A DNA stretch of 64,000 nt from Candidatus Moraniibacteriota bacterium (GTDB lineage Bacteria; Patescibacteriota; Minisyncoccia; Moranbacterales; UBA2206): positions 2,020-66,019 of the forward strand of contig JBAQNP010000011.1 in assembly GCA_049303905.1 (NCBI GenBank), read 5' to 3'. The translations under genes and the position numbers were made by a program. Positions within the stretch are counted from its first letter, which is position 1; every line of letters starts with the position of its first letter. This document shows, in pieces, positions 6,854 to 58,498 of the stretch. The notes under the pieces are model-generated. The model saw only the letters and a program-made list of their open reading frames with translations, had not been told where the DNA came from and ran no database searches.

Positions 6854-7879
6854 TTATTTCCACCCCTGCCCAATTGCTCTCCAAATAATTTGTTCTTGAG
6901 GAACATTAATCATACCTTGCGGAGTTTGTTGTTGAACATTTTGTTGAACTTTTTTAAATTCCATATTAATTTCAAAAAAATTGGAAATTTCAGCACTTTC
7001 TACAAAAGCAATTTTATAACCTTTGCGATTCATTGCTTGATTTTCTCCCAATTCCAATTCGGGATTCCAAACTTGGCGAGTTTTCATTTCTTCAGCATAA
7101 TCTTCATAAATTTCTGTCATAAGATTTGCAAGTTCTGTGTCTGCGTTAACTACAGTTTTTATCCCCAAATCTTCCCTGGCTTCTTTTCTACCAATAAAAT
7201 ATTGATGGGAATATAATTTTTCTGTTAGAAATTCAATTATTTTTTCAATTTCTTCATCTTTCATTTTTTCTTTATGACTCTTGAGTAATCTTTTGGCAAG
7301 AATTTTTATCAACTCATGTGTTCGATTTACATTTCCCAAAGCCAATGGATGAATTGAGGGAGTAGCTTCTACAAATTTATTGAAAATTTTAACTAATTCC
7401 TCATCACCTTTTATTCCAAATTTATTTTTTGCCAAATCAAAGTAACTCATCACTTCTTCCACAGAAATCGGAATGCGATTTTGTGGATTTTTTGGATCAA
7501 TAGGATTGAAAACATTGGCGGTTGATGGATCAATCGGCGAAAGTTCACTCATATCACTCATCACAATTTCATCAGCTCCAAGTGCAATCATTGTCGCCGC
7601 ACTATGTGCTTTGTAAGGAATAATAACAGAAAACTTTTCGCAATATTCACGAATCATAGAAACTAAACGCCACGGAGTCATTGTGTCTCCACCAGCACTA
7701 TATAATATTAAATCTATTTTTTCTTGTTTTCCAATGCGTCGCAATTGTGAACTGATAATTGGAATAATATCCATTGCTACTCGAGCATTCACTGGTCCTT
7801 GTCGATCACTAGTTGCATAAGTTATAACCTTTGAACCTCTCTTGGTTTCAATTTTTTTGATCAAATCTTTCGTATTCAT
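6854..7879 (-). CDS. ClpP/crotonase-fold serine protease (SDH / S49-like family)
   Basis: LILYSAGGDTMTPWRLVSMIREY...AHSAATMIALGADEIVMSDMSELSPIDPS has SppA/SDH-proteinase-like nucleophile-serine context. 17 nt upstream of dinD paralog 2, same strand. Confidence 0.55.
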   Translation of the reverse strand: MNTKDLIKKIETKRGSKVITYATSDRQGPVNARVAMDIIPIISSQLRRIGKQEKIDLILYSAGGDTMTPWRLVSMIREYCEKFSVIIPYKAHSAATMIALGADEIVMSDMSELSPIDPSTANVFNPIDPKNPQNRIPISVEEVMSYFDLAKNKFGIKGDEELVKIFNKFVEATPSIHPLALGNVNRTHELIKILAKRLLKSHKEKMKDEEIEKIIEFLTEKLYSHQYFIGRKEAREDLGIKTVVNADTELANLMTEIYEDYAEEMKTRQVWNPELELGENQAMNRKGYKIAFVESAEISNFFEINMEFKKVQQNVQQQTPQGMINVPQEQIIWRAIGQGWK

Positions 7880-19550: not shown

Positions 19551-20378
19551 TTAGGGAGCAATTTTTTCTACGCTTTGCCCCATCGGAATTTCATTCGTTT
19601 CAATTTGTTCTGTTTGAGGTTGACTTACTTTATCATCCTCATTTTCCTCCGGCACTACTGGCGCAACTTCTGGCGGTAATTCCCCTTTTTGCAGACTGGC
19701 ATATCCAAAGAAAGCGTTGAAACGATTAGACCAAATCAAGACATTATAATACTTATCCAAATCAACTAACTTCTCAACTTTATAGTTAACATTTCCTGTG
19801 GTTGATTTCATCACACCTAAATCAATAGCATCATCTGGATTAAGATTCGAAACTGGCGAAAGATAGATGTGCATATCTTGCCCATTGACCATTTCAAAAC
19901 CTTCCAATCGCAAAAAAAATTCTCCTTCGCTTTTTACAAAAAGTGCTTTGCCTTTCAAAATTTGTTCTACATTATTGAATCTTCCTTGAGAAACAATTTC
20001 TCCATTAGCTGGGAAAGCTTCGTCTAGATTCTCAATTTCTATAACCTTTCCTGGTTCTTGCAAATTGGAAGAAATTGAATTTTTTGGCAGTGGGCGCGGA
20101 GCATTTTTCTTCTTTTTCACCAGAAAAATCACTCCCGCAATGATGGCTAAAATCAGAACTATAATCAAAACTAGAAACACTATTTTCTTCCAAGTTTTTT
20201 TCTGATAGGTTTTTCGCATTACCACTTTTGGTTTTCTGAATTTTTTGAAAGGATTAGTGACCCTAATCGTTTTTATTTTCTCCATTATATCCCCTATCGC
20301 CTTTTTTATCACTTCTTTTTTGATAATAGTTTTTTTAGTTTTATTGATTTTTCTAACTTTTATAATTTGCTTTTTCAT
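19551..20378 (-). CDS. membrane-anchored DM13-like domain protein
   Basis: Basic N-terminus, one TM helix; C-terminal GKALFVKSEGEFFLRLEGFEMVNGQDMHIYLSP resembles the DM13 domain. Confidence 0.45.
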   Translation of the reverse strand: MKKQIIKVRKINKTKKTIIKKEVIKKAIGDIMEKIKTIRVTNPFKKFRKPKVVMRKTYQKKTWKKIVFLVLIIVLILAIIAGVIFLVKKKKNAPRPLPKNSISSNLQEPGKVIEIENLDEAFPANGEIVSQGRFNNVEQILKGKALFVKSEGEFFLRLEGFEMVNGQDMHIYLSPVSNLNPDDAIDLGVMKSTTGNVNYKVEKLVDLDKYYNVLIWSNRFNAFFGYASLQKGELPPEVAPVVPEENEDDKVSQPQTEQIETNEIPMGQSVEKIAP

Positions 20379-20665: not shown

Positions 20666-20690
20666 TTGACAATTAAATATTCCGCGATAG
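20666..20690 (+). repeat. 25-bp direct repeat copy 1 (TTGACAATTAAATATTCCGCGATAG), contains the first 10 nt of tRNA-Asn
   Basis: 24/25 identical to 21019-21043. Followed by nested perfect hairpins (TCCCGAC/GTCGGGA; TTCTGTC/GACAGAA) and then GCTCAAT, which looks like a pseudo-tRNA 5' fragment. Confidence 0.6.
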
Positions 20691-20758
20691 TCCCGACGCA
20701 AGGTCGGGATCCCGACTTCTGTCTGGAGACAGAACGTCGGAGCTCAATCAAAAATCCA

Positions 20759-21022
20759 ATGCCACATGTTTACATATTAGAAAGCATAAACGATGGTCGG
20801 TATTATATAGGTAGTACCGCTGATTTAAAGTCTAGGATAAAACATCATATTGGTGGGCACACTCCAAGTACCAAAAGATTTGGTAAAATTAAATTAGTCT
20901 TTTCTCAAGAATATGCAACATTGAAAGAGGTTAGAATTATTGAGAAAAAACTAAAGAAATTAAAGAGAAAAGATTATTTGCAGAAAATAATCAAGGATGG
21001 TTTTATAAAAATAAAACCTTGA
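20759..21022 (+). CDS. small GIY-YIG nuclease (YhbQ/UPF0213-like)
   Basis: HVYILESINDGRYYIGSTADLKSRIKHHIGG is the GIY-YIG core. The track ORF begins at 20666 but the N-terminal 31 codons read through the repeat and hairpins, so the start is placed at MPHVYIL. Confidence 0.65.
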   Translation: MPHVYILESINDGRYYIGSTADLKSRIKHHIGGHTPSTKRFGKIKLVFSQEYATLKEVRIIEKKLKKLKRKDYLQKIIKDGFIKIKP

Positions 21023-21033
21023 CAACTAAATAT

Positions 21034-21105
21034 TCCGCGATAGCTCAATGGTAGAGCAGTTGACTGTTAATCAATTGGTTCCAGGTTCGAGTCCTGGTCG
21101 CGGAG
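21034..21105 (+). tRNA. tRNA-Asn (anticodon GTT)
   Basis: Acceptor TCCGCGA/TCGCGGA, D arm GCTCAATGGTAGAGC, anticodon loop CTGTTAA, T arm CCAGGTTCGAGTCCTGG, discriminator G. Confidence 0.85.
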
Positions 21106-22698
21106 CAGAACTGGAGAACTAGAGTATAAAAGCTCTAGTTTTTCTTTATCTTCGGGCAAATTCAGAGGTTCGAACTTTCTGAATATCGTATTTAGCTCGG
21201 AAGATATTTTTTCTAGGCCAGCGAACTTATTATCGGCTCTAATATTGAGTTTTTTCTCAGAAAGTGAGAGGTTCGAACCAATCGCCCTAAATATCTCTTT
21301 TCGTTTTTCTTCATCGCCATTTCTGAACTTTTCAAGTGAGTCCTTGGCAAGCTCCAGCAATTCTTTCGTTTCTTCCAGCTGGTCTATCCAATAGGTTGAA
21401 TTGTCCTCACAAGCGTCCAAACTGGCCTTCAGCCGTCCTTTTTCTCGTGTTAGCTCATCTTTCTTCGTTGCGAATTCACCCTCGCTTAATTCGCCATTTA
21501 TTCGCATATCTAGGAGTCTAGCTAACTTGTTATCATAAGCTTCGCATTCCTTTTTTCGGTTTTCTAATGTTTGTTTCCTTTCCTCAATTTCTTCCTTGTT
21601 TTCCTTTCTGAGTTTTTCAATCGCCCATTCTAGGAATGTGGGGTGGATCTTTATTCTTTTTAGGATTCCAATGATTTCTTCTTCAAACTTCCTTTCCTCG
21701 ACTACTTTTTGATCGCATTTTGGATCTAACCTGTGACTACAGTGGTAGTAGATGTAATAATGAGTTTTGCCATTCTTGCATTTCTTAACTTTATGTTCAG
21801 CTACTATCGATGCTTCACATATTCCGCATCTGATCGCTCCTGTATATTTGAAACTGTATTTTCGTGGTCTGGTCGTTCCTCGTCGACCGAGTATCATTTG
21901 AGTCTTTTCGAATTCTGCTTGTGTGATCATCGGTTCATGCTTGCCTTTATGCCATTGGCCACTATCGGATGGAAATTCATACCAGCCGTAGTAGAAAGGG
22001 TTATTCATCATGGCGTACCATGAGCTGATGGAAACTTTTTGGCCATGCTTATTTGTAAAGTTCCATTCAGCAGTTCCTTTCCTGTATGCTTCTGGCGGAG
22101 TGAGTTTTCCTGAAGCGACCATTTTCAACATCTTTTGAATCGTTTCAAATCTTTCAGGATCTTTGATGATTTCTTTTTCGCCTTTGAGCTTGATGGGATT
22201 GTGTCTATATCCGAGTGGCGATCCATTAGGATACCACCCTCGCTCCGCTTTGTTTCGCAGGCCTCGCTTTGTGTCAGTGCTTAGATCGCGAATGAATTGG
22301 TTAGCCATTCCTTGCTCTACAGCCATCACTAGAACATTATCTTCAGGGTAATAACTTCTCCCGAATGTAAAAATATGTTTTATCATCTTACCCTGTAGCA
22401 TCCAACTTATCGTACCGCTATCTACAGGATTTCTAGACAGACGATTAAGTTTCCAACAAAGTATTCCATCAGCTTCGCCCCGTTTTATTTTTTCGAACAT
22501 TTCGTTAAAAACTATCCTCCCAGGCTCTTTGGCTGATTTGGATTCATGCATAATTTCAGATACATTCAACCCGTTTTCTTTTGCGAGTCTTTGTAACTCT
22601 TCAATTTGCGAGTCAATCGATGCCATTTGTCGATCCTCGCTTTCAGATGATTTTCGAGCGTAAAGAATGTACTTAGTTGCTCTTGTTTCTTGGTTCAT
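21067..22698 (-). CDS. large serine recombinase (resolvase/invertase-type catalytic domain + recombinase domain + zinc ribbon + coiled coil)
   Basis: N-terminal YARKSSESEDRQMASIDSQ (catalytic Ser region), zinc ribbon CGICEAS...YYHCSHR, long coiled coil. The annotated 3' end reads through the tRNA-Asn 3' half (last ~13 codons), so the true stop may be earlier or it overlaps att. Confidence 0.85.
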   Translation of the reverse strand: MNQETRATKYILYARKSSESEDRQMASIDSQIEELQRLAKENGLNVSEIMHESKSAKEPGRIVFNEMFEKIKRGEADGILCWKLNRLSRNPVDSGTISWMLQGKMIKHIFTFGRSYYPEDNVLVMAVEQGMANQFIRDLSTDTKRGLRNKAERGWYPNGSPLGYRHNPIKLKGEKEIIKDPERFETIQKMLKMVASGKLTPPEAYRKGTAEWNFTNKHGQKVSISSWYAMMNNPFYYGWYEFPSDSGQWHKGKHEPMITQAEFEKTQMILGRRGTTRPRKYSFKYTGAIRCGICEASIVAEHKVKKCKNGKTHYYIYYHCSHRLDPKCDQKVVEERKFEEEIIGILKRIKIHPTFLEWAIEKLRKENKEEIEERKQTLENRKKECEAYDNKLARLLDMRINGELSEGEFATKKDELTREKGRLKASLDACEDNSTYWIDQLEETKELLELAKDSLEKFRNGDEEKRKEIFRAIGSNLSLSEKKLNIRADNKFAGLEKISSELNTIFRKFEPLNLPEDKEKLELLYSSSPVLLRDQDSNLEPID

Positions 22699-22916
22699 TT
22701 TTTTAATATTAATTGATTAGTTTTCTTAACAACACAATACTCCAAAGTGATATTAAAGCTAGTGGGTAAAAACCTGCGAAAATCCGACAAAGTTCGGGCT
22801 CAAAATAGGGTAAAGCTCTTTGCCAAAATCCCGCTTTTCTCTTTTATTAAGCCATAATATGCGATTTGAACTTTACCCTTTTTTCTGAAAAAACTTTGTC
22901 GTCTTTTCTAAAAGAA

Positions 22917-23010
22917 AGCGGACTCATGTAAGGGCTTTTTCTTTTTTAGTAAACCGACTCACGTAAGTCGGTTTTCTTTTGAGAATACTGACTCATGTAG
23001 GTAAGTTTTC
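22917..23010. repeat. three tandem ~34/35-bp repeats with core GACTCAYGTAAG (imperfect palindrome around ACGT)
   Basis: Copies at 22921, 22956 and 22990, each followed by GGnTTTTCTTTT. Confidence 0.6.
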
Positions 23011-23029
23011 TTCAATCTCTATATTGCAA

Positions 23030-23246
23030 AAAACGTTCAGAAAATTCAGAAAATGTGTCCGCAAAACCCGCAAAACTACATTCTCAAAACGTTCGGAAAA
23101 CTCGGAAAACTAAAGTACGAAAAACGCTCCAAAAACTCCAAAAACCTACCTTTAAAAACGTTCAGAAAATTCAGGGGATTAAATTCCTGAAACGTTCAGA
23201 AAACTCAGAAAACCATATCCTTTTCTGTGTCAGAAAAGTCAGGGAA
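23030..23246. repeat. six degenerate iteron-like repeats AAAACGTTCAGAAAAYTCAGAAAA (each itself a TTCAGAAAA dimer)
   Basis: Copies begin near 23030, 23087, 23116, 23154, 23190 and 23225. The spurious 97-aa plus-strand ORF at 23055..23348 is just a translation of these repeats. Confidence 0.6.
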
Positions 23247-23371
23247 TTATTTTTTAAAAAATCGCCGTTTTTTATTTTTTTACTTAACTTCATTGATTGC
23301 ATAGATACTTTATATTTACCTTATAGGGAACATATATTCTTTATATGACGTATATGTATATATAATAGTTA

Positions 23372-23710
23372 CTATGTTTGACCATTAATGTTTCTGGAAA
23401 ACTCCTCGCTTTGATAACATTCAATTATTTTTTCTTCTAATTTTTTCCATAGCACTTTATTCTCCATGTAAACAATTTCAACAAATTTACCTTTGTGTGG
23501 CGTGGCTGGAGGAGAAACGTAAAGCCCTCTGGATGAATACCAAATTCTATAGCCCTTTATAACTAAACAGCCAAAGAAAGTAACATTTACAATAGCTCTG
23601 ACGGAATCCTTTCTCGTTTCCATCTCCTTGATCAGGTTAATTTTGACACGAATATTTTCTATGTCACTATGATTCAATATTCTTTTCTCATTGGGGGTTT
23701 CTATCTTCAT
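23372..23710 (-). CDS. SpoVG-like protein
   Basis: VRAIVNVTFFGCLVIKGYRIWYSSRGLYVSPPATPHKGKFVEIVYMENKVLWKKLEEKII parallels SpoVG ([32 protein letters not shown]...FRDIAHPI). Recalled alignment, moderate confidence. Confidence 0.5.
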   Translation of the reverse strand: MKIETPNEKRILNHSDIENIRVKINLIKEMETRKDSVRAIVNVTFFGCLVIKGYRIWYSSRGLYVSPPATPHKGKFVEIVYMENKVLWKKLEEKIIECYQSEEFSRNINGQT

Positions 23711-23814
23711 TTTTTTACTAATTTTAATAATAATGCTAATTATGTATAAGAATTCATTTTAGATGCTTAGCTCTCCATTTCCAGCTTTGCTCATCCTCGC
23801 ATGCAAAATGTAAT

Positions 23815-24096
23815 TTATGTTTCCGAATAGTATAAGTCATGTAAGATTTCTATTTTTTTACTACCATCATAATCTTCTTTGGAAACGTTTTTATTGAAAT
23901 GATAGTTGATTGATTTTATGGAAATTTTTCGACTACTCTGCTTTACTTCCATCACGATCATTCTGAATAGACAAATATCGGAAACCAGTTGATAGTTCCT
24001 TAAACTCCGAAGATACTTAAAAATTCTTCCCAACCCATAGTTCTTATCAATCAGTCTCCTAGCAATTTTGATTTGATCATTTGCATTTTTGCTCAT
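23815..24096 (-). CDS. small hypothetical protein
   Basis: 93-aa ORF in a tightly packed minus-strand operon. Confidence 0.4.
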   Translation of the reverse strand: MSKNANDQIKIARRLIDKNYGLGRIFKYLRSLRNYQLVSDICLFRMIVMEVKQSSRKISIKSINYHFNKNVSKEDYDGSKKIEILHDLYYSET

Positions 24097-24100
24097 ATTT

Positions 24101-24238
24101 TTTTAATTAGATTTATAAACAGCAGTCAGTAAATCCAGCAACATTTGAGCATTTTCAACAATCTCGTTGTCGCTTATTTCAACGCCAAATTCTTCTTCGT
24201 GCATTTGCTTTAGTTGTTGGATTTCTTCTTGCGAAAAC
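24101..24238 (-). CDS. small hypothetical protein (45 aa, MFSQEEIQQLKQMHEEEFGVEISDNEIVENAQMLLDLLTAVYKSN)
   Basis: Hand-translated; below the track length cutoff. Fills the gap between the two neighbouring genes with 3-4 nt spacing. Confidence 0.3.
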
Positions 24239-24241
24239 ATT

Positions 24242-24460
24242 TTAGTTATAGATTCTACCTTTCAAATCCTTTTGAATGAAAAATAACTTTTTTGGTTCGA
24301 CCTTTATTTTTCCATTGTGAAAATCATCCAATATCATATTGGTTTTTTCGTTTGGGATAATAACAAAGACACATCTTCTTGGATCGCTTTTGTCTATTTC
24401 TGCAATTTCATGATCAAAGTAAAGCAGTACTGAACACGTTAATAGATCTGTTATTTTCAT
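24242..24460 (-). CDS. small hypothetical protein
   Basis: 72-aa ORF. Confidence 0.4.
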   Translation of the reverse strand: MKITDLLTCSVLLYFDHEIAEIDKSDPRRCVFVIIPNEKTNMILDDFHNGKIKVEPKKLFFIQKDLKGRIYN

Positions 24461-24546
24461 CTTAATCTAAATAAAAAAATTACGACTTTATATGTCGTAA
24501 TCATAGAGCGTAACTATTTAATCCTGCACAGTATAAATCTGGTGGA

Positions 24547-25653
24547 TTATAGGTTCATTAGCTTTTTGAATCTGGTTATTTCTCTTGATGCAATATTTGC
24601 AGGGACTTTCTTAAGCTTAAGGTTTTCCATTACTTTGTTTGCCTCTTTGTTGGTCAATTTTTCCCCAGTAATCAAGAAGAAATATATTGCCTCGCTCAAT
24701 ATTGTTTTTGGATCTATCCTTGAAATTCCCATTTTAGACTTGTAGGATGGAAATTTCTTTATGACACCAGCACCGCTTAATTCTTTGATAAGGTTTCTTA
24801 TATCGGTTATGTCAGTTGCACCATAAATATCAATGCTGATGTGTGGCTCAAAATTCTTCAGTTTTTCCTTGCTTAACTGAATGCATCGATTTTCCGTTTG
24901 TATTATTGAAGCCCTTGATGATCTTCGGCTGGAAGTCGCAAAATTATCATCCCACTCTATTTTATTGAACAAAATAAATTTTCTTAGATTGGATGAATAA
25001 CTCGAAGGGAAACCCAATTCCATGACAAAAAAATTGTAAATTTCCTCTTTGAGTTTCGGGTATTTATTATCTAAAAATATATCAATTTCATCAATCAATT
25101 TTTGCTTGGTTTTGCCACTTTGATTTTCCGTGCTTTTGTCAGCTATTTCCAAAATCAGATCATAATATGGATCGGATTCATTTTCCAATACTTCTACCAA
25201 ATAAACTGCATTTTCTCTAAAATTACTATATACTTCCGCTCTGACAGCACTAGGTTTTATTCCATATTTTTTTCTCAGGTTGCTTAACCATTGATTGAAT
25301 TTTGGAATAAATCGCAATATGGTAATCAGCGATATTTCTTTTGGATGTTTTAAACCTTTTTTAATATAACCAAAATCTGTAGCCAAAATTGATAAAACTT
25401 CTCGCTTAGCTAAGGATTCTTTTTCAGATAATCCCATTTCAATCCCTGTTTTTTTGGATGGTTTATTTTTCTCCTTAATTAGATTATTTAAACCGAGCAA
25501 ATCATTTGGAATAAAATATTCTTCTTTGATAAAACCAGCATCTTCTAGAAATTTGCTTGATACCTGGATAGTTCTCTTCGAGAAAAGAGGACTTTTATTT
25601 GCTTCTGTACAAAAATCAACTAAATTCATGATGTTAATCTTAATTTCTTCCAT
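24547..25653 (-). CDS. hypothetical protein (start placed at MEEIKIN; track ORF extends to 25845)
   Basis: The first 64 codons of the track ORF (MSGRPDGYHNQKTPRCSIMCVEPPAKGRDRAKPKG...) run through a GC-rich hairpin cluster that is atypical for this genome's coding sequence. Confidence 0.45.
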   Translation of the reverse strand: MEEIKINIMNLVDFCTEANKSPLFSKRTIQVSSKFLEDAGFIKEEYFIPNDLLGLNNLIKEKNKPSKKTGIEMGLSEKESLAKREVLSILATDFGYIKKGLKHPKEISLITILRFIPKFNQWLSNLRKKYGIKPSAVRAEVYSNFRENAVYLVEVLENESDPYYDLILEIADKSTENQSGKTKQKLIDEIDIFLDNKYPKLKEEIYNFFVMELGFPSSYSSNLRKFILFNKIEWDDNFATSSRRSSRASIIQTENRCIQLSKEKLKNFEPHISIDIYGATDITDIRNLIKELSGAGVIKKFPSYKSKMGISRIDPKTILSEAIYFFLITGEKLTNKEANKVMENLKLKKVPANIASREITRFKKLMNL

Positions 25654-25740
25654 TTTACCACTAAACCCGAAATGGTTGTATTTTAAGCAATTTGATGGTA
25701 TTTTATATTTGGTACCATAATCAATAAATACTAAGGTGAA

Positions 25741-25880
25741 ACCCTTGGGTTTTGCTCTATCACGCCCTTTAGCGGGCGGCTCGACGCACATGATAGAGCA
25801 CCTTGGTGTTTTTTGATTGTGGTACCCGTCGGGTCGTCCACTCAAGCGGAACCACTCGACGACTAATTATTAGTCGTTTT
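25741..25880. other. GC-rich structured element (nested hairpins) ending in a terminator-like CGACTAA-TTA-TTAGTCG-TTTTT
   Basis: Stems GCTCTATCA/TGATAGAGC (25754-25799) enclosing CGCCC/GGGCG; GTCGTC/GACGAC (25833-25863); final hairpin 25860-25881. Could be an sRNA or ribo-regulator on the plus strand, or a 5' leader of the minus-strand gene. Confidence 0.3.
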
Positions 25881-25884
25881 TATT

Positions 25885-27168
25885 ATGAAAATTTCTAGAA
25901 TTTTAGGGGAAAACTTTTTTCGGAAAGATTTGAATCTTAAAAATAAATGGTTGCATAGACTTATTTCTATCTCATTTGTTTTATTATTTTTTGTTTCTGT
26001 TATTTCCGTATTTGTAGACTATTTTGATGGTAATGGTTTTACCCAATGGACACAGACAAACACTCTTAAAGAGAGAATAAATTCTGATATGAATGCTACT
26101 GGCAATCTTGTTAAACAAAACGAGAAATTAGAAGAAATTGGTGCTCCTGCACAAACTCTAAATCTTAATGACTTGCCCTATGGTGATTATGTTTTAAATA
26201 ATGTATATTGTTCCACTGAAATTCAAAATCATGTAGGGGAAATAAAAAACGAACGTAAAATTGACCACCTTCTAGTAAGAGATTTGTATGATAAAAATGA
26301 TGTTTCAATTGAAGATTTTAATAAATACATAAAGGAAAATAATATAGATTGTATAGCTGTGGATGCTTATACGACTTATGGAAATAACAGTCAGGAAACT
26401 GGTAAATTTACTTTTTTAGAACCCAATAAAAAATTTCAGAATGGTTGGGCGTTTTATAAAAAATCAATCCCCAAAACCGTTTTATATCTTTTAGGATATT
26501 CACTTTGGACAGTGACATCTTTATTACTTATTTTCATTGTAATAGCCGTTATCTATTATAAAATTTTGCTTTATATAATATTCGGCAAAGCCACCAATGA
26601 AGCATCAAGGGAGGGAATCGAAAGAAGCGATGCAGTAAAATTGAGTCGATACGCAAAGCCCATAGTCATTATCTCAATCGTAATCATTTTACTTTTAGGA
26701 GTTTCTTTTTATTGGTTTGGAATTAGGCCGTCAAATATTCGACAGTGGTGTTCTGACGTTGAGGGAAGACAGGCTACTAATAGTGAATACACGAATTGTT
26801 TAAGGAAAAATGGGTTAAGAGAGGACAATTTACAATCTATTAATGATGAGCAATTAAAAAATTTACAACAAAGCATCGACGAGCAGTCGGAAAAAATAGA
26901 AAATGTTAACACAAAAAAGAACACCTCGTCTATCGATGCTCAGGCAATAATAAAGTCATCCATAGAAAAAACTAATCGTGAAGAGCAGGCAAAATGCCAG
27001 CAGGAATTAAGTGAATATAACTCCTGTTTAGCTGAGTATAATTCTAAGATGACTGAATATAATTCATGCCTAACGGAAGAAGCGAATCCGAATTCCTGGA
27101 ATTATGGCAAGACATCACTTTGTTTCAAGCCATCTAATTATTGCTTTAAGCCAGTTTGTGCTTATTAG
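25885..27168 (+). CDS. membrane protein with coiled-coil and Cys-rich C-terminus, hypothetical
   Basis: 427 aa; N-terminal TM helix, two internal TM helices, C-terminal CxxEYNSC repeats. Confidence 0.5.
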   Translation: MKISRILGENFFRKDLNLKNKWLHRLISISFVLLFFVSVISVFVDYFDGNGFTQWTQTNTLKERINSDMNATGNLVKQNEKLEEIGAPAQTLNLNDLPYGDYVLNNVYCSTEIQNHVGEIKNERKIDHLLVRDLYDKNDVSIEDFNKYIKENNIDCIAVDAYTTYGNNSQETGKFTFLEPNKKFQNGWAFYKKSIPKTVLYLLGYSLWTVTSLLLIFIVIAVIYYKILLYIIFGKATNEASREGIERSDAVKLSRYAKPIVIISIVIILLLGVSFYWFGIRPSNIRQWCSDVEGRQATNSEYTNCLRKNGLREDNLQSINDEQLKNLQQSIDEQSEKIENVNTKKNTSSIDAQAIIKSSIEKTNREEQAKCQQELSEYNSCLAEYNSKMTEYNSCLTEEANPNSWNYGKTSLCFKPSNYCFKPVCAY

Positions 27169-27177
27169 TAAAAAAGT

Positions 27178-29430
27178 CTATAGTTTGATTTTTGTTTTTA
27201 CTTTTTGGTCTATGATGTTGTATATGGGATATTTTTCTCTGATAATTTGGTGTAAGTCTATCCTTTTTGTTGTATCTGGCGTTATATCCTCAATAGATAT
27301 TACCAGTGCATAATCTTGAGAATAATCAATTGTATCAGCCTTTCCTCTTGTAGTTAAGGTTAGCCATATTTCCCAATCACCATTTTTATAATGCGAAAAA
27401 GTTTTTTCAAAAGTCTTTAGATTTTGCCATTTTGTTCTATTGTCAATCTTTTCCGAGGGGAGTCCGGCACTTCTATCCGTACCATTAGAGTTTTTATAAT
27501 GAAGATTGATGTCTATATCTGCTAATGTATAATCTATCTGGCCACTTTCACTTATGAGTGGAGTATAGGCTAAAGTTCCCCTAATCTTAACTTTTTTATT
27601 TTTTCCAACCAACTCATCAGGAATAATAAATTTTATTTTATGTTTATACTCTTTTGCTTCTTGATCATTTTCTTTTTTTGCCTCAATGGCTCCCAGGTGT
27701 ATAAATGTCGCTGATGACTTATCGCAGTCTAAAGCTCTGCTGTAATCAGGGATTCCAAAACCAACTGCTCTTCTACAATCATTCTCTTTTATTTTTGAAT
27801 TATTAGGCAGATTGTAACTAGCAGAATGAACAACTAAGGCCTTTACTAAATCAATCGAGTTTCTCCCAGTGTTCAACAGATAAGCATAAATTTGAGCGGC
27901 AATACTACTTACTAATGGAGCCGCAAAACTTGTTCCGATATTTTCATAAATTTTTTTAGGATCAATTGATAAGCTCCTAACTCCAACCCCTGCATAGTTT
28001 CCGTATTTATCGATATTCCCTCCAAAATGTGCTAAATCTGGCTTTTTTGAATCAGGCAGACCGGTTCTTGTAAAAGGAGACGGCTCATTATTCAGAGATA
28101 ATGCTCTTGAAGACGAACTATCAGCAATGGAGCCAACGCTTAAACCATTTATGATGTCGGCAGGAGAGGTAATAACTGAATTGTTGCAGAATAAACAATC
28201 TGGATATGTATCAGTCAGAAAAGTTTTTTGATTGCCTGCCGTTACAATTAAACAAACTTTGTGTTTATATGCTATTGCATCAAGCTCGCGAGTGAAAAAT
28301 GATTTTGTGTTATTTAGTATTGTCGTATCCGAGTCATTATTTAATGATAGATTAAAAACTTTTATATCTTTGTATTTTGGGTTTTTTATTGTGTCCAAGA
28401 GAGCGTTTATTATTTCTCGATCATTAGCACCCCTGCTTTTTCTCATCACTTTTATATCTAGAATTTTCAAGGCTGGTATCAGTCGGTTATTTTCTCTTAT
28501 TTGGTTTTCAATGTCATTTCCAAAAATTGCTCGTCCTGCAACGAATGTGCCATGCGAATGATTTTCGTCTTGAGAATCCTTTATAAAATCACAAGTATCT
28601 AGAATTAAATCCTTAATTAAGGGGTGTCTAGATATGCCAGTATCTATGACACCAATTTTTGCATCAAGTAATGGTTTTTCTATAATAACCGAATTGTATT
28701 CATATTCAATAGGTAGCTCTTGCGGGGTAAAAAAATCAATAGATTTTTCCACTCTAACAATTGGATTTCTTGGATCTGGTTCAGAAATTTCATCAATAAA
28801 ATTTGCGGCGAAAGAACCATATAATATTTTTGAACCAGCTTGCGAAGTAAAATACTCAACTTCAGAGCCAGTTTTCTTTTTCAGATTTTTTGCTACTTGT
28901 TTTCCATCTTCTTCGGAAACACCATCTGCAAGTATCAAATAGCTCTTGATTTTTTTGCCTTTTTGCGGAACAAATGATAACTTCGCACGCTTATTAATAA
29001 GTCCAATCTTGGTAATCGCAGACAAATATGCACTTCCGTTTTTATTATTAATCAAATCGAATTTACTTACAGAGTCCCTAAAGGATTTAAGATTTTCAGC
29101 AGTTGAGGATGCTAGAAAATTTTGTTTTCCTATTTGCGAATAAACATCTATATGGTTTTGTTCTAGTAGCTTACGTGGTTGTGCTGACTTTGCTAGTGCC
29201 TCATCATGAAATTCGATTTCATAAAATAATCTGTTTCCAGATAAAATTTGCCCTACTTTCTTTGTTTCCGCAAAACCTATAAGGTTGTCAACTTCTCGAA
29301 CCCTATCTCTTTTGTGTTTTTCAAATTCCGAATCATCTCCTCTGTAAGGCGGTGGATTTCCGCCTCCAGATTTTTGCTCTCTGCGATTATTTTCGGCTGG
29401 TATTTCAAATAAAGGGTTTTTTATTTTCAT
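27178..29430 (-). CDS. S8 family subtilisin-like serine peptidase with ~220-aa N-terminal extension
   Basis: Catalytic triad contexts VIDTGI (Asp), HGTFVAG (His), GTSFAAP (Ser). Sits 14 nt downstream of the AAA ATPase. Confidence 0.8.
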   Translation of the reverse strand: MKIKNPLFEIPAENNRREQKSGGGNPPPYRGDDSEFEKHKRDRVREVDNLIGFAETKKVGQILSGNRLFYEIEFHDEALAKSAQPRKLLEQNHIDVYSQIGKQNFLASSTAENLKSFRDSVSKFDLINNKNGSAYLSAITKIGLINKRAKLSFVPQKGKKIKSYLILADGVSEEDGKQVAKNLKKKTGSEVEYFTSQAGSKILYGSFAANFIDEISEPDPRNPIVRVEKSIDFFTPQELPIEYEYNSVIIEKPLLDAKIGVIDTGISRHPLIKDLILDTCDFIKDSQDENHSHGTFVAGRAIFGNDIENQIRENNRLIPALKILDIKVMRKSRGANDREIINALLDTIKNPKYKDIKVFNLSLNNDSDTTILNNTKSFFTRELDAIAYKHKVCLIVTAGNQKTFLTDTYPDCLFCNNSVITSPADIINGLSVGSIADSSSSRALSLNNEPSPFTRTGLPDSKKPDLAHFGGNIDKYGNYAGVGVRSLSIDPKKIYENIGTSFAAPLVSSIAAQIYAYLLNTGRNSIDLVKALVVHSASYNLPNNSKIKENDCRRAVGFGIPDYSRALDCDKSSATFIHLGAIEAKKENDQEAKEYKHKIKFIIPDELVGKNKKVKIRGTLAYTPLISESGQIDYTLADIDINLHYKNSNGTDRSAGLPSEKIDNRTKWQNLKTFEKTFSHYKNGDWEIWLTLTTRGKADTIDYSQDYALVISIEDITPDTTKRIDLHQIIREKYPIYNIIDQKVKTKIKL

Positions 29431-29444
29431 AATTTTACTTTTAA

Positions 29445-30557
29445 TTATTTGCTTATATTATGAATTGTTGAAGATGAGATACCTGTCATTTTTTCAAGAT
29501 TATCGAAGGTGTATCTTGATTTATCGGATTTTCTTAAATGTCTTATTGCTTTTATAAAATTTTTTCTAGGAGCACCTTTTAACTTTTCATTTTTTCCAGC
29601 AGTTGCAATTAAGAAATTTTCTATAAGAATATCTCTTAAACCAGCAGAATCTTTATCAAGGAGTGATTTCCTGAGACTCTTGTTAATAATTTGCTTTATT
29701 ATTGCACCTGATAATCCCTCTGAGAGTTCGGCTAGAAGATTGATATCAATATCTTCATTTGCCCCTATAATCATCTGAATTAAAGATTTACGAAGTGAGG
29801 CAGGGAGGATATCTATTTTAAGGGAATAATCAAATCTTCTCCAGACCGCTGAATCAAGTAAATGATCATGATTTGTTGCGGCAATCAATATGGTATCAGG
29901 ATTAAGCTCGTCGATATTTTGAAGTAAAACAGTCACTACTCGCTTAAGCTCACCTAGTTCTTGCGAATCATCTCGATGCTTTGCGATTGCATCAAATTCA
30001 TCCAATAATAAAACGCACTCGTTTGCGGAAGCTTCTCTGAATATTTCTTTTAAGTTTTTTCCTGTTTCTCCAAGATATGAAGATATAAGCGAATCTAAAT
30101 AAACATGAAGAATCGGAATACCTAATTCTCCGGCGACAACATAGGCGAAGAGAGTTTTTCCTGTTCCAGGAGGACCATGCAAAATTAACCTACTATCATT
30201 ACTTAATCCATGCTTTCTTAAGAGATCCTTTTTCTTGTAGTTGTGTATTATTTCTTGAAGGGTTTCCTTATTTGTATCTGAAAGTATTATATTTCCAATG
30301 CCAATTTTTGATTTTCGTATTTCAAAAAGTTTAGAATTATTATCCTGCGTATTTGAAAATTGAAATGAGCTTAGTGATGAGGGAGAGAAATGTGCCTCCG
30401 ATGCTGATGCATAAGCTTCTCGTAGTTTTTTTGCCAAATTATATTGCTTCCTTTTTTCTGCGGTCGCTATGAGCTTCTTGATGATGATATCAATTTCTTG
30501 CGGATCATTTTTTTTGAATGAATTTATTAAATTTATGATAATTTCTGTAGAAATCAT
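29445..30557 (-). CDS. AAA+ ATPase
   Basis: Walker A GPPGTGKT, Walker B VLLLDEFD; 370 aa; first gene of a two-gene operon with the S8 peptidase. Confidence 0.8.
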   Translation of the reverse strand: MISTEIIINLINSFKKNDPQEIDIIIKKLIATAEKRKQYNLAKKLREAYASASEAHFSPSSLSSFQFSNTQDNNSKLFEIRKSKIGIGNIILSDTNKETLQEIIHNYKKKDLLRKHGLSNDSRLILHGPPGTGKTLFAYVVAGELGIPILHVYLDSLISSYLGETGKNLKEIFREASANECVLLLDEFDAIAKHRDDSQELGELKRVVTVLLQNIDELNPDTILIAATNHDHLLDSAVWRRFDYSLKIDILPASLRKSLIQMIIGANEDIDINLLAELSEGLSGAIIKQIINKSLRKSLLDKDSAGLRDILIENFLIATAGKNEKLKGAPRKNFIKAIRHLRKSDKSRYTFDNLEKMTGISSSTIHNISK

Positions 30558-30780
30558 AGCAATTTTTATTTTATTTTAAGATTATGTTTTAATTATATCC
30601 AAAAATAGAAATTAAGTAAAGTTTTGGATAAATGCAATTTAAAACAGTTTAGATACGCCAGTTGTTATGCTGTTATAGTCATCCATAATTATTATTGACT
30701 GGCACTCAGTCGAAAGAATGGTCATTGCTTTTTATGTAAATGTGGAATATAAATGATTATAGACGCAAGCTAAAATTGAG

Positions 30781-32073
30781 TTGTTAAATATGGGAAAATT
30801 ATCTGAAAAATTAGTAGTTTATCTTGATCAAAATTTCATTAGTGAAATTGCTAAATCAAAAATAAACAGTAAAGTCAGAAAGGAATTTCAAGAACTTTTT
30901 GATTTGCTTCATAGAGGTTTTCTAGAAGAAAAATTAGTCGTACCATCTTCTTGGTTTCATGAAATTGAAACATGTTTGATTCCTGAATTCAAAGAAAGAA
31001 TCAAGGAATGCCAAGCATACATGGGTCAGATAGGCTTGGAAAATAAGGAGAACATATACACGTTTCAAATCGGAAGAGCCGCTAACGATTTCTTAGGAAA
31101 TAAAAATAAGCCACTGGATTACACAATTGCTTTCCATGATGATCCAGATCAGTTCTTGAAGTTTTACAATATAAGTTTTGATATGCATCTGGAGCGTTAT
31201 CACAATAAGGAAGAAAGAGAGGAGCTCGCATCAAAAATCGATGCAAACAGAGAGGAAATAAAGAAAGTAAGCTATAAAATTCAGTTAGGAAGAGAAATAG
31301 AAGCTTACTCTGCTGGTTTTCTGGCAAGCAACGGTTGGCGAGTTAACTATTTATTTAACGGAGATGTTGATAAAATTAAAGATTTTGCTGGTTCTAAAAA
31401 TTTTAAAGACATACCCCTGGTTGAAATTGGATCAAAGCTTTGGGCAAAAATCCTAACAGCTCATGGTAATAGAAAGATTCAAAGTGGCGACGCTACTGAT
31501 GTTGAGGTGATATCTTCCTATTTGCCCTATGTTGATGTGATGGCCATAGATGGTTTCATGGCCAATAATGTAAAAGAATTAAAAATGGATGAAAAATACA
31601 AAACCATTGTTTTTACTGCAAAGGGTGATGGTTTGAGAAAATTTATTGAGTTTATTAAAGATTATCTGGACAATAATCCACCAGTAAATGTTCCTGACGC
31701 CACTATATTTGTACTTTCGGATGATAAAATAAAAGATGTTTCTTTTGAATTTTTTAGAAAACTAGGGTCTTTATGCAGTAGATATTATACTGATGTCTAC
31801 GCTTTTGATGATGGGAATATGCCTAAATATCAACACAGAGATTCAAAAATCATAATGCCATTCAGTGGTTTGCAGGAAGTGCATCATATTGATATTAAAC
31901 CCAACACTTCAACAGAGGAAACCGTTGCTATCTGTAAAGAAAAATGTAGGTCGGAAAAATTCGTAATAATTGATTCATACCGAGATTTACCCGATAATTT
32001 TATTAAGACATTTATTGAATATTGTGAAAATGATAAAGATATGATTTTGGGGTATGGTATATACACAAAGTAG
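30781..32073 (+). CDS. hypothetical protein (430 aa)
   Basis: Long ORF divergent from the ATPase gene; no motif recognised. Confidence 0.5.
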   Translation: MLNMGKLSEKLVVYLDQNFISEIAKSKINSKVRKEFQELFDLLHRGFLEEKLVVPSSWFHEIETCLIPEFKERIKECQAYMGQIGLENKENIYTFQIGRAANDFLGNKNKPLDYTIAFHDDPDQFLKFYNISFDMHLERYHNKEEREELASKIDANREEIKKVSYKIQLGREIEAYSAGFLASNGWRVNYLFNGDVDKIKDFAGSKNFKDIPLVEIGSKLWAKILTAHGNRKIQSGDATDVEVISSYLPYVDVMAIDGFMANNVKELKMDEKYKTIVFTAKGDGLRKFIEFIKDYLDNNPPVNVPDATIFVLSDDKIKDVSFEFFRKLGSLCSRYYTDVYAFDDGNMPKYQHRDSKIIMPFSGLQEVHHIDIKPNTSTEETVAICKEKCRSEKFVIIDSYRDLPDNFIKTFIEYCENDKDMILGYGIYTK

Positions 32074-32245
32074 TTTTGCCTGAGTGATGAAATTGGTAGA
32101 CGAGGTGCCAACTTCTTCTTTCCAGTTTTTCTTAATTATTATTGAAGAATGGAATAAAGTTTCCAAGCTTTCCTTAGATAAAGAGATAGAAACTATAACT
32201 AAAAATGGGTAGAGCGAATGAAGGAAAAGAATAACAAACAAAATT

Positions 32246-32827
32246 ATGGTAAGAAAAATGAGCTATGGTATTAAGGTCTCCTATCCGGGATTCAGTGCGA
32301 CAGACTTAGAAAAAGAACGATCACAGAAGAAGTCGTCTGTTGAAGCATTGCCTAATTTGCTTTCGTCTTTGGCCTTGCCGTATTTATTTGGTGCAAAAAA
32401 GCAGATTAACAGGTATAAAACTTCCACATCGTTACTCTCTACACGACCCATATTATCTACTATGGAATGTTTGCATGAAGCATCTACATTATTTGAGGAT
32501 TTAAACACTGTGGCTATGTATGCTAATAAATGTAACCAACACCATGAGTACCATCGGCTATTTAGAGATATTTGTAATCATATTAGGCATACTGTTCGAG
32601 AAGATTTTGATATAGAGGATAAGAGCGTAAAAAATGAAGCTGCAAAAAGATTAGGACTTGATTCTAGGCTTCAAATTAATATAGGTTTTGATATGGATAG
32701 CATTAAAGTTGGAGAAAAAGTGATTAAGCTGGTTGATATAAAAGCGTATTTAGATTGGGCGGAAGGAGTTTTCACTGAGATCATAAATAGAGCCAAAAGG
32801 GACGGTGCTTTTCGAGAGATGGAATGA
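32246..32827 (+). CDS. hypothetical protein (193 aa)
   Basis: ORF with no recognised motif. Confidence 0.4.
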   Translation: MVRKMSYGIKVSYPGFSATDLEKERSQKKSSVEALPNLLSSLALPYLFGAKKQINRYKTSTSLLSTRPILSTMECLHEASTLFEDLNTVAMYANKCNQHHEYHRLFRDICNHIRHTVREDFDIEDKSVKNEAAKRLGLDSRLQINIGFDMDSIKVGEKVIKLVDIKAYLDWAEGVFTEIINRAKRDGAFREME

Positions 32828-32907
32828 ATTGGAAGCTGGCATTGAGATATATGTGGTATTTATTATTAAGCATAGGTTCGCATCATTTTTAGCTCGCGGA
32901 GCCTTTA

Positions 32908-32944
32908 AAAAATTACGTAATTAATTACGTAATTTTATTTTGAA
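32908..32944. terminator. bidirectional terminator: A-run, 24-bp perfect palindrome AATTACGTAATTAATTACGTAATT, T-run
   Basis: The identical 24-mer recurs at 58468-58491 in the same A/T-run context. Confidence 0.55.
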
Positions 32945-33035: not shown

Positions 33036-34091
33036 ATGGAAAAATTAACTAATCGTCAAAACTCAATACTAGAATTCATAAGAAATCAGGGGCAAGCCAG
33101 CACTAGGGAAATTAAGAAATACCAAGAACTAAAAACGGGAACTCTAAATAGAATAACAATCATAAGAGATCTTGATGTTTTAATAACGAAAAAACTAATT
33201 AAAAAAACAGGACAAGGAAGAAGCGTTTCTTATAGCATGATAATTGAAAATCCCCTACTGTCTTTTTATGATATTGAAAAATATTTTAAACAATCAATAA
33301 AAGAAAGAAATTCTCGAAAAAACTTCAACTTCGATATCTTTAAAAATTTTGATAATTCCATATTTTCAAAAGAAGAATTATCTAATCTTGATAAACTGAA
33401 TGATACCTACCGAAAAAGCGTAGCAAGGCTTTCCCCAACTATTTTAAAAAAGGAGTTTGAAAGACTAACTATCGAATTAAGTTGGAAATCATCTCAAATA
33501 GAAGGAAACACATATTCGTTAATAGAAACGGAAATTTTAATAACAGAAAATCAAGAGGCTTCCGGTCACACAAAATCAGAAACTCAAATGATCTTAAATC
33601 ATAAAAAAGCTCTGGATTATATTATTAATAATCCTAAAATTTTCAAAGAATTAACTCTTTCCAAAATCGAAGACTTGCACAAGCTACTCATCTTCGATCT
33701 TGGAGTTGAAAAAAATATTAGAAAAACATCAGTCGGAATAACTGGAACTAATTACAAACCGCTAGACAACCAATTTCAAATAAAAGAAGCCTTGCATGAA
33801 ATGCTTTCGATTATTAATGCTAAAAATCTACATCCCCTGCTAAAAGCACTCTCTGCAATCGCCTTAATTTCCTATACCCAGCCCTTTGAAGATGGAAACA
33901 AAAGAACTGCTAGAATTTTAGGCAATGCTATTTTATTAGCCCAGGAATATTGCCCACTATCCTACAGAGATGTTGATAAAAATGACTACAAGAAAGCGAT
34001 TTTGCTTTTTTATGAACAAAATAGTCTTTATTTACTAAAAGAAATTTTCATCCAACAATTTGAATTTGCAGTGAAGAATTATTTTGAATAA
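33036..34091 (+). CDS. Fic family protein with N-terminal HTH-like region
   Basis: Fic motif QPFEDGNKRTARILGNAILL. Confidence 0.75.
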   Translation: MEKLTNRQNSILEFIRNQGQASTREIKKYQELKTGTLNRITIIRDLDVLITKKLIKKTGQGRSVSYSMIIENPLLSFYDIEKYFKQSIKERNSRKNFNFDIFKNFDNSIFSKEELSNLDKLNDTYRKSVARLSPTILKKEFERLTIELSWKSSQIEGNTYSLIETEILITENQEASGHTKSETQMILNHKKALDYIINNPKIFKELTLSKIEDLHKLLIFDLGVEKNIRKTSVGITGTNYKPLDNQFQIKEALHEMLSIINAKNLHPLLKALSAIALISYTQPFEDGNKRTARILGNAILLAQEYCPLSYRDVDKNDYKKAILLFYEQNSLYLLKEIFIQQFEFAVKNYFE

Positions 34092-58461: not shown

Positions 58462-58498
58462 AATAAAAAATTACGTAATTAATTACGTAATTTTTTTC
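58462..58498. terminator. bidirectional terminator: A6 + AATTACGTAATTAATTACGTAATT + T7 (second copy of the palindrome at 32914-32937)
   Basis: Perfect 24-bp palindrome flanked by A-run and T-run; placed between the tRNA cluster (+) and the giant gene (-). Confidence 0.6.

Follow-up and report, generated by a model that had tools for sequence, protein, structure and literature searches.

Tandem repeats beside a serine recombinase gene in a Moraniibacteriota island share their unit with small terminase genes: a possible pac-like array

Introduction

What is the role of two tandem-repeat arrays packed into the gap between a recombinase gene and its neighbour in a mobile island? The arrays lie in a 64,000-nucleotide stretch of the genome of a Candidatus Moraniibacteriota bacterium (contig JBAQNP010000011.1), hereafter the window, in which an island of ~11.8 kb (21098-32902) is integrated in the tRNA-Asn gene of this candidate phyla radiation (CPR) host. 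The gap, 22699-23371, separates the gene of a large serine recombinase (LSR; 21067-22698, - strand) from a SpoVG-like gene (23372-23710, - strand). It houses array A (22913-23014) and array B (23029-23249), both 215-550 bp upstream of the LSR gene. An initial annotation of the DNA read the pair as the signature of an iteron-type replication origin. We found that the unit of array B is homologous to a site inside terS, the small terminase subunit gene, of sister islands and phages. We tentatively read array B, with a probability of about 45%, as a TerS-recognition (pac-like) site that has been multiplied in a satellite-like island without terS and would serve packaging by helper machinery.

Results

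Array B is a non-coding array of dimeric repeats

Array B consists of seven units of ~34 bp (23029-23053, 23057-23076, 23086-23110, 23120-23145, 23154-23178, 23190-23213 and 23230-23246). Each unit is a tandem 9-mer dimer with AAACG in front. On the recombinase-sense (-) strand the unit reads TTTT-NN-GRR-TTTT-NN-GAACGTTT. Tandem Repeats Finder (TRF) reported a period of 34 with 4.1 copies (score 112), as well as five 9-nt sub-repeats. At up to two mismatches the 18-mer dimer occurs four times in the window, three times in array B, against an expectation of 0.06. A single dimer match lies outside the arrays, with one mismatch, at 20232-20249. The initial annotation had counted about six dimers of one motif. 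The dimeric structure stood, and the count and the uniformity had to be revised: there are seven units, not all of them TTCAGAAAA dimers, as the central 2-3 nt vary by unit (CAG, CGC, CGG, CCA). Between the two 9-mers of a unit these central nucleotides agree at 3.0 of 3 positions, compared with 1.97 for shuffled partners (p = 0.004), and half-site agreement was equally significant in the related island L161 (p = 0.004).

Both arrays proved to be adjacent, regularly spaced beyond chance and non-coding, as first described. The 97-aa open reading frame (ORF) at 23055-23348 had already been suspected to be an artefact, and we agree, because stops occur in all six frames, a 13-bp indel disrupts it in the closest relative, L060, and unit number ranges from 3 to 8 in L160 and L161. 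A dispersed family of repetitive extragenic palindromes (REP) or miniature inverted-repeat transposable elements (MITE) was rejected as well: the repeat pattern had no match in 185,579 species genomes, and one stray array B match was found in 64 kb. Scanning IMG/VR with this pattern returned one match, a chance hit in coding sequence. Period, spacers and differences that are not A-specific are unsuitable for a CRISPR-like array or for the template and variable repeats of a diversity-generating retroelement. The reconstructed junction sequences are unlike either array, which disposes of an attP or recombinase site.

An array resembling array B was seen on an unrelated chromosome from freshwater-sediment metagenomes (L090, 390-540; L028, 10705-10855). 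Its ~17 tandem 8-9-mers follow the pattern TCNGAAAAY, AAACGTTCGGAAAACTCAGAAAAC among them; four copies of TCTGAC and inverted copies come next, and the array lies upstream of an RNase H-like gene. The locus also has rpmH-rnpA-yidC-jag and recF.

The array B unit matches a block within terS of sister islands and phages

Sister islands whose LSR is 76-87% identical to that of the window carry, directly upstream of the LSR gene, a gene for a helix-turn-helix (HTH) protein of 124-163 aa. This protein matches the terminase small subunit (PHROG 4102, E = 7e-21). The islands with terS are L002, L003, L121, L149, L150, L151-153 and L159; L154 and L155 have terS too, on contigs too short to include the LSR. 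In several sister islands terS is preceded by a gene for a protein with an O-like/DnaD-like replication-initiator domain (PHROG 9773, E = 1.6e-23). Members of the TerS family (66-79% identity) adjoin the large terminase, TerL, in the phage fragments L131, L156 and L023, and in L131 a P22-like portal follows TerL. This gene neighbourhood indicates that the family is true TerS. In composition the sister islands thus resemble phage satellites, with integrase, replication initiator, TerS and defence cargo and without TerL. A profile search of a representative library returned a huge generic TerS-HTH family of 16,859 matches, in which close relatives were collapsed and the motif variants absent.

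Within terS lies the block AAG TTT TGC GGG TTT TGC GAA CGT TTA GAG, encoding the peptide KFCGFCERLE, and its reverse complement is the array B unit. The second unit (window 23060-23077) is identical at 18/18 nt to terS of L002, L003, L121 and L023. The third unit with its flank matches the terS motif at 26/30 positions, and the alignment of array B with terS of L159 is 95% identical across 21 nt and 86% across 28 nt. Relative to the LSR, array B and the terS block are on the same strand, upstream by ~320 nt in L003 and by 331-551 nt in the window. Among the matches listed from a pattern scan of metagenomes, most were chance hits and the relevant ones were only L060, L121 and L023. The homology of its unit to a site inside terS of sister islands and phages speaks more for a pac-type signal than for a set of Rep iterons in array B.

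The terS block appears constrained at the nucleotide level

The longest invariant run in six terS genes was the 21-mer GTTTTGCGGGTTTTGCGAACG, the next longest being 8 nt; a seventh identical copy of the 21-mer is present in L159. Identical synonymous codons were found at 6/9 positions within the block versus 12/59 elsewhere in the six genes (Fisher p = 0.008); with four genes in place of six, p was 0.009. All six had been found through their proteins only, and L121 and L023, found via the DNA pattern, were not counted. The test was redone in this way because two of the four sequences in the first codon alignment had come via that pattern.

Two further motif types were found. FSEFSE (TTT AGT GAA TTT AGT GAA CGT, with a TTTAGTGAATTTAGTGAACG core) is identical over 29 nt in island L151 and phage L156, despite TerS proteins that otherwise differ, and FPEFPE occurs in phage L131. 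The block appears to be the most nucleotide-conserved stretch of terS, and we hold with moderate confidence that it is constrained as DNA.

Two further ideas were discarded. A programmed frameshift at A-AAA-AAG in terS as the cause of the conservation does not fit L023, which has CAA there, or L149, which has AAA-AAA-AGG. Universal co-variation of both half-sites in TerS proteins is ruled out by FPEFTE, FPEFSE and FPEFME.

Removal of terS by a cassette swap

At 88% identity, the terS island L159 shares with the window the LSR leader on one side and, on the other, the genes for a 368-aa protein, DUF5659 and a 45-55-aa protein. The DNA enclosed by these shared flanks consists in L159 of ~400 nt of non-coding DNA and terS. 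The window counterpart is made up of a 93-aa gene, the SpoVG-like gene, an AT-rich palindrome, array B, array A and an inverted repeat. The sole similarity between the two cassettes is that of the terS motif to array B. The recombinase 5' leader/promoter region (22699-22775, - strand) is common to terS-bearing sister islands. It can be aligned to the sequence downstream of the terS stop codon in L002, L003 and L159, and window 22771-22600 is 88% identical to L159. In the lineage of the window island, terS was thus removed by a swap of cassettes. The O-like gene has been lost from this lineage as well.

Four haplotypes of the SpoVG cassette were available, in two close pairs: the window (identical to L130), L060 (identical to L129), L160 and L161. 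They carry 7, 6, 3 and ~8 units of array B, and 3, 3, 3 and 1 of array A, respectively. SpoVG, the 93-aa protein (p93) and the arrays occur together in all four, and array B is kept in 4/4 though SpoVG has diverged to 64% aa identity.

Packaging as a possible role of array B

The packaging role proposed here would have arisen in a few steps. The 22699-23371 region would be the cis-acting control region of the ~11.8-kb satellite-like integrative island. A ~34-bp segment, present in single copy inside terS of sister islands and P22-like phages, would have been tandemly amplified into array B. This segment may be the site for a ring-shaped TerS oligomer, offering two direct half-sites of 9 bp that are spaced by about one helical turn. 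The island lineage would have exchanged its terS cassette for one with the 93-aa gene, the SpoVG-like gene and the repeats, keeping and multiplying the site. Through pac-site mimicry the excised island could then be packaged by TerS and TerL that a helper phage or a co-resident island with terS provides in trans, and the differing central nucleotides of the units may fit different TerS specificities. Phage fragments with the same TerS family and motif types were found (L023, L131 and L156). The array island L060 and the terS island L121 come from the same metagenome, Ga0209319. What the comparisons establish is the homology of the array, where it lies and how it is oriented, its conservation, the swap of cassettes and the genomic setting; TerS binding and packaging we infer. 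A pac-like site is the most economical explanation because the block is tied to terS, is constrained at the nucleotide level and is the sole thing kept when terS was replaced, and because pac precedents exist.

A bolder version of this proposal, which we think improbable, makes array B a packaging-signal array of multiple specificities. Each unit (CAG, CGC, CGG, CCA; CCG in L161) would mimic the pac site within terS of a different phage or satellite TerS lineage. The island could then be packaged by several helpers, or the TerS of phages could be decoyed by the array, hindering phage packaging.

Several observations weigh against a packaging role. The synonymous-conservation test is modest (p~0.008) and its motif window was chosen post hoc. 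The FxEFxE peptide falls within a common TerS protein motif (..PEF..), and its halves are unequal in many homologues (FPEFTE, FPEFSE); part of the repeat character of the DNA may for these reasons stem from coding history and slippage. The proposal requires a helper, since terS, terL, portal and the O-like gene were not found in the window. No relatives of the LSR were found in IMG/VR viral contigs. Repeats beside an AT-rich stretch and a palindrome are also the classic look of a theta origin. The substitutions, indel and copy-number change of array B between haplotypes would equally fit weak or no constraint.

The arrays could instead form an operator or regulatory array for a different DNA binder, such as the SpoVG-like protein, p93, the recombinase or a host factor, controlling recombinase expression or excision. 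SpoVG proteins are site-specific nucleic-acid binders. The arrays are located between the SpoVG-like operon and the recombinase promoter, SpoVG, p93 and arrays keep constant company in the four haplotypes, and constraint is strong on array A and on the AT palindrome. However, this role leaves unexplained why the array B unit is the terS block. The block is conserved in phage terS genes that have terL, not a recombinase, downstream, and the units are unlike any known SpoVG site. We regard an operator array as unlikely, if the least unlikely of the alternatives to a packaging role.

Divergence between haplotypes and the possibility of a relic

The window and L060 were compared against a neutral proxy, the synonymous divergence of four adjacent genes (0.161). 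Array A differed at 2/102 positions (p = 3e-6) and 23250-23371 at 2/122 (p = 1e-7). Array B differed at 19/221 positions (substitution divergence 0.086, p = 8e-4) and by the 13-bp indel. Its AAACGTTC part was unchanged in every unit carrying it in both islands, and several L060 substitutions fall in central triplets and break half-site identity. Thus, the constraint on array B looks partial and its structure labile. For array A and the AT-rich part the constraint looks strong.

Lability is what would be expected if array B were a non-functional relic, a fragment of the lost terS that replication slippage had expanded, homogenised and made an unstable minisatellite. In keeping with decay, terS homology is confined to ~34 nt, the units stand in different frames, with stops, and tandem 9-mers are slippage-prone. 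The haplotypes differ by copy number (3-8), by the 13-bp deletion and by the substitutions that break half-site identity. Yet the array was kept in 4/4 haplotypes while the neighbouring gene diverged by 36% at the protein level, and, set against the neutral proxy, its substitutions ran at about half the rate (p = 8e-4). Wherever a unit has the AAACGTTC part, this part is the same in both close haplotypes, every complete unit has exactly two half-sites, and the piece that was amplified is the nucleotide-constrained block of terS. On balance we find a mere relic improbable.

Origin-like features and the search for replication genes

Beyond array B, an A/T-run segment (TTTTTTAAAAAATCGCCGTTTTTTATTTTTTT; 23250-23300) leads to an AT-rich imperfect palindrome of 75 nt (23301-23375), which begins at the SpoVG stop codon; neither is assigned to a strand. 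The palindrome is predicted to form a hairpin of 26 pairs. Its identity in L161 and L160 is 81-96%, compared with just 68% (nt) and 64% (aa) for the SpoVG-like gene next to it. No other non-coding piece of the region is as conserved, and an origin, a terminator or a protein site are conceivable functions.

These features give substance to the suggestion of an iteron-type origin, in which arrays A and/or B would bind an island-encoded initiator and the AT-rich segment and palindrome would act as the unwinding element after excision. There are indeed two sets of ~34-bp direct repeats at regular spacing (three units in A, seven in B), adjoined by a 120-bp AT-rich stretch and the 75-nt palindrome, both far more conserved than neutral. 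Replication also seems to be part of the lifestyle of this island family, as sister islands encode the O-like/DnaD-like initiator domain. This much of the first interpretation holds. Its other half does not, since no initiator was detected and the array B unit is homologous to a terS site. The proteins of the island gave no match to Rep, O, DnaD, primase, helicase or ParB in Pfam, PHROGs, NCBIfam and PADLOC, with remote homologues possible among several unassigned proteins. A tblastn search of the window with the O-like protein of the sister islands was also negative. Array B travels with terS, including in phages without an adjacent O-like gene, and the O-like gene of the sister islands has candidate iterons of its own. 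An origin at the arrays is in our view improbable, and nothing in the analysis supports the autonomous, plasmid-like replication after excision that had been suggested.

The candidate iterons of the sister islands are four ACAGAGA repeats, spaced by ~12-13 nt, directly downstream of the O-like gene (L002, 5377-5425; L003, 5389-5434; L150, ~6885-6930). They are followed by an A/T-rich stretch and are distinct from the terS motif. In islands without the O-like gene, a conserved non-coding element of ~400 nt, richer in G+C and without Rfam match, lies between the 45-55-aa gene and terS (L121, 1231-1690; L149, 6590-7000; L155, 369-771; L159, 2558-2959). A structured RNA is one possibility for this element, the origin of those islands another.

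Array A and the inverted repeat

Array A (+ strand) has three units of ~34 bp, GACTCAYGTARG followed by a T-rich tail, in agreement with the initial annotation. They start at 22913, 22948 and 22982, a spacing of 35 and 34 nt, with 70-76% identity to the reference copy, and TRF gave a period of 34-35 (scores 87-88). The core GACTCAYGTAAG (one mismatch allowed) occurs three times in 64 kb, all within the array, against an expectation of 0.26, and this count was reached in 0/100 shuffles. The 64-kb window has no match to array A outside the array. A perfect hairpin, AAACCGACT-CACGTA-AGTCGGTTT, with TCTTTTG after it, makes up unit 2 (22948-22980). This unit alone has the G+C-containing hairpin and T-run of an intrinsic terminator, with nine pairs on the + strand, then TCTTTTGAGA; units 1 and 3 are degenerate as terminators. 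Similarity of array A to terS did not exceed that of shuffled controls. The same controls led us to discard array A, the inverted repeat and the AT-rich part as additional terS remnants. Array A is a repeat set separate from array B, and may be a second protein-binding set, like the repeat boxes of SPP1 pac, or a row of tandem terminators.

Between the recombinase leader and array A lies an imperfect inverted repeat, without assigned strand (22778-22908; 41-nt arms, 76% complementary, 49-nt spacer), with folding z-scores of -4.3 and -5.4. With array A it could constitute a small RNA gene on the + strand, with promoter-like sequence at 22726-22754, hairpin at 22778-22908 and terminator at 22951-22982. 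The promoter-like match, the canonical + strand terminator and the folding z-score of -4.3 favour such a gene, and at five pairs in which only one side has changed between the window and L060, pairing is retained as G-U on the + strand. However, no Rfam family matches, and array B is left unexplained. In L160 and L161 the inverted repeat is only partly kept; when they are included many pairs break, covariation is negligible rather than convincing, and the support for an RNA structure is gone. Of all the explanations considered here we find this the hardest to credit. A known RNA family was rejected too, as the region had no Rfam match at the gathering score or E<=1 and only two sub-threshold chance matches.

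The host island, its junctions and its cargo

The view of the locus as part of a mobile element was sound. The integration target is tRNA-Asn (GTT; 21034-21106, + strand), identified by ARAGORN and Rfam. The left junction is the 3' end of this gene, TCGCGGAGC(A), at 21098-21106, and the right junction (32875-32902, + strand) is a degenerate copy of that end (GGTTCGCATCATTTTTAGCTCGCGGAGC; …CTCGCGGAGC). Alignment with the second island copy, L060, begins at the tRNA and stops at window 32902, where the degenerate copy sits, which sets the length of the island at ~11.8 kb. After the right junction follows the native tRNA terminator palindrome (32911-32934), a hairpin of AATTACGTAATT x2 that recurs after tRNA-Arg (58469-58492). 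Both sites carry the same double palindrome of 24 nt, AATTACGTAATTAATTACGTAATT, set in A/T runs immediately behind a tRNA 3' end, which at the right junction is the displaced end of tRNA-Asn; the palindrome is probably a host tRNA terminator hairpin and marks the island boundary. In L060 (12826-13000), the 3' end of its tRNA-Asn recurs as another exact copy (GAATCCCTCTCGCGGAGCA) ~150 bp past the right end of the island, which suggests tandem or successive integrations at the same tRNA.

The LSR (543 aa) has the Pfam domains Resolvase, Recombinase and Zn_ribbon_recom and matches an integrase family (PHROG 95, E = 1.6e-64). Its last ~13 codons (~40 nt, 21067-21106) overlap the tRNA-Asn gene on the opposite strand, and the C-terminus is thus encoded across the attachment junction. 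Hosts therefore differ in this C-terminus, the tRNA of L060 being just 85% identical, and excision would alter it. The closest relatives of the LSR are from Candidatus Moraniibacteriota metagenome-assembled genomes (MAGs), and one neighbouring protein is annotated from such a MAG.

The SpoVG-like protein (112 aa) matches Pfam SpoVG (E = 5.9e-11) and NCBIfam PRK13259 (E = 1e-7, below its cut-off), and a search for its homologues found only one cluster. The other cassette protein, p93 (23815-24096, - strand), has no family match. Comparison of p93 with the TerS family by hhalign was negative (probability 0.1), and its single-sequence AlphaFold2 model was unusable (predicted local distance difference test score of 51). 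A small acidic protein of 45 aa (24103-24240, MFSQEEIQQLKQMHEEEFG…) is conserved in all cassette types. Distant LSR islands have it as a 60-aa version (L004) or as the C-terminus of a 269-aa HTH protein (L005), and it is a candidate core component of the island family.

The cargo of the island is an IetAS defence system, with IetS at 27178-29430 (PADLOC E = 2.6e-96) and IetA at 29445-30557 (E = 4.1e-101), both on the - strand. No structural phage genes were found in the island. Traits of phage-inducible chromosomal islands (PICIs) occur in the form of an integrase, site-specific insertion in tRNA-Asn, a size of 11.8 kb and a lack of structural genes, though the integrase is of the serine and not the usual tyrosine type. 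PICI-like replication and packaging modules (the O-like gene and/or terS) are in the sister islands, not in the window island.

The island is a mosaic. A ~1.2-kb segment (25712-26897), mostly the gene of a 427-aa membrane protein, is swapped for other genes in L060 (4909-6825). Between the window and L060 the recombinase and a 432-aa ORF are only 79-83% identical at the nucleotide level, and the block from SpoVG to DUF5659 is 94-97% identical. Within 20666-21043, a small GIY-YIG nuclease gene (within the ORF 20666-21022) is flanked by two copies (20666-20690 and 21019-21043, 96% identical) of a 25-nt sequence, made up of 15 nt from immediately upstream of tRNA-Asn and the first 10 nt of the tRNA. 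The arrangement looks like a GIY-YIG element that inserted at the 5' end of the tRNA and duplicated its target. Just outside the right junction, 33036-34091 encodes a Fic-domain protein with an N-terminal winged-helix domain and weak PADLOC matches to SoFic/PDC-S04.

Discussion

If array B is indeed a pac-like array, the ultrasmall CPR/Patescibacteria would host phage satellites in the form of serine-recombinase islands with a phage-type small terminase and defence cargo. In one lineage of these islands, nothing but a multiplied cis site would be left of the packaging module. The locus would provide a concrete pac-site candidate for a CPR phage group and a case of pac mimicry in array form. 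It would also point to a route by which defence systems (IetAS, restriction-modification) spread among organisms that are not yet cultivable or genetically tractable. Should the less probable, multi-specificity version be true, the LSR/TerS islands of Moraniibacteriota would be the first phage-satellite family described in CPR bacteria. Should the pac reading fail, the locus remains a clear example of how a piece of coding sequence became a non-coding repeat array that persists.

Comparison with known systems

The iteron origins of plasmids, phage lambda and Staphylococcus aureus pathogenicity islands (SaPIs) share with this locus regularly spaced direct repeats beside an AT-rich segment and a palindrome. 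They differ in that no cognate initiator gene was found here and the unit is terS-derived and not linked to a rep gene.

In phage P22, pac is a 22-bp site inside terS (PMC9611059). As in headful phages of the P22/Sf6 type, the related phages here have a short asymmetric site within terS and are ordered terS-terL-P22-like portal, and the site coincides with the most nucleotide-conserved part of terS. By contrast, the putative pac described here is a tandem 9-mer dimer, and in the window it stands outside any terS and is multiplied 7-fold.

SPP1 pac comprises several sets of direct repeats that are wrapped by the TerS ring (PMC4737164). Like SPP1/SF6 pac (boxA, boxB, boxC), the window region has several short direct-repeat sets within a few hundred bp, spaced by about one helical turn, in A-tract-rich DNA of the bendable kind. 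The SPP1 region overlaps the promoter and start of terS and the phage encodes its TerS, whereas the window island has no TerS in cis.

PICIs of the SaPIbov5 type are without terS and carry the cos site of their helper. The satellite PLE needs a 14-bp copy of the pac site of its helper, ICP1 (PMC11417361). The window island resembles these satellites as a small, terminase-less island with a short exact copy (18 nt) of a phage terS site, and its sister islands resemble SaPIs in encoding their own TerS. It differs from them in its diversified, multi-copy array, its large serine recombinase and its CPR host.

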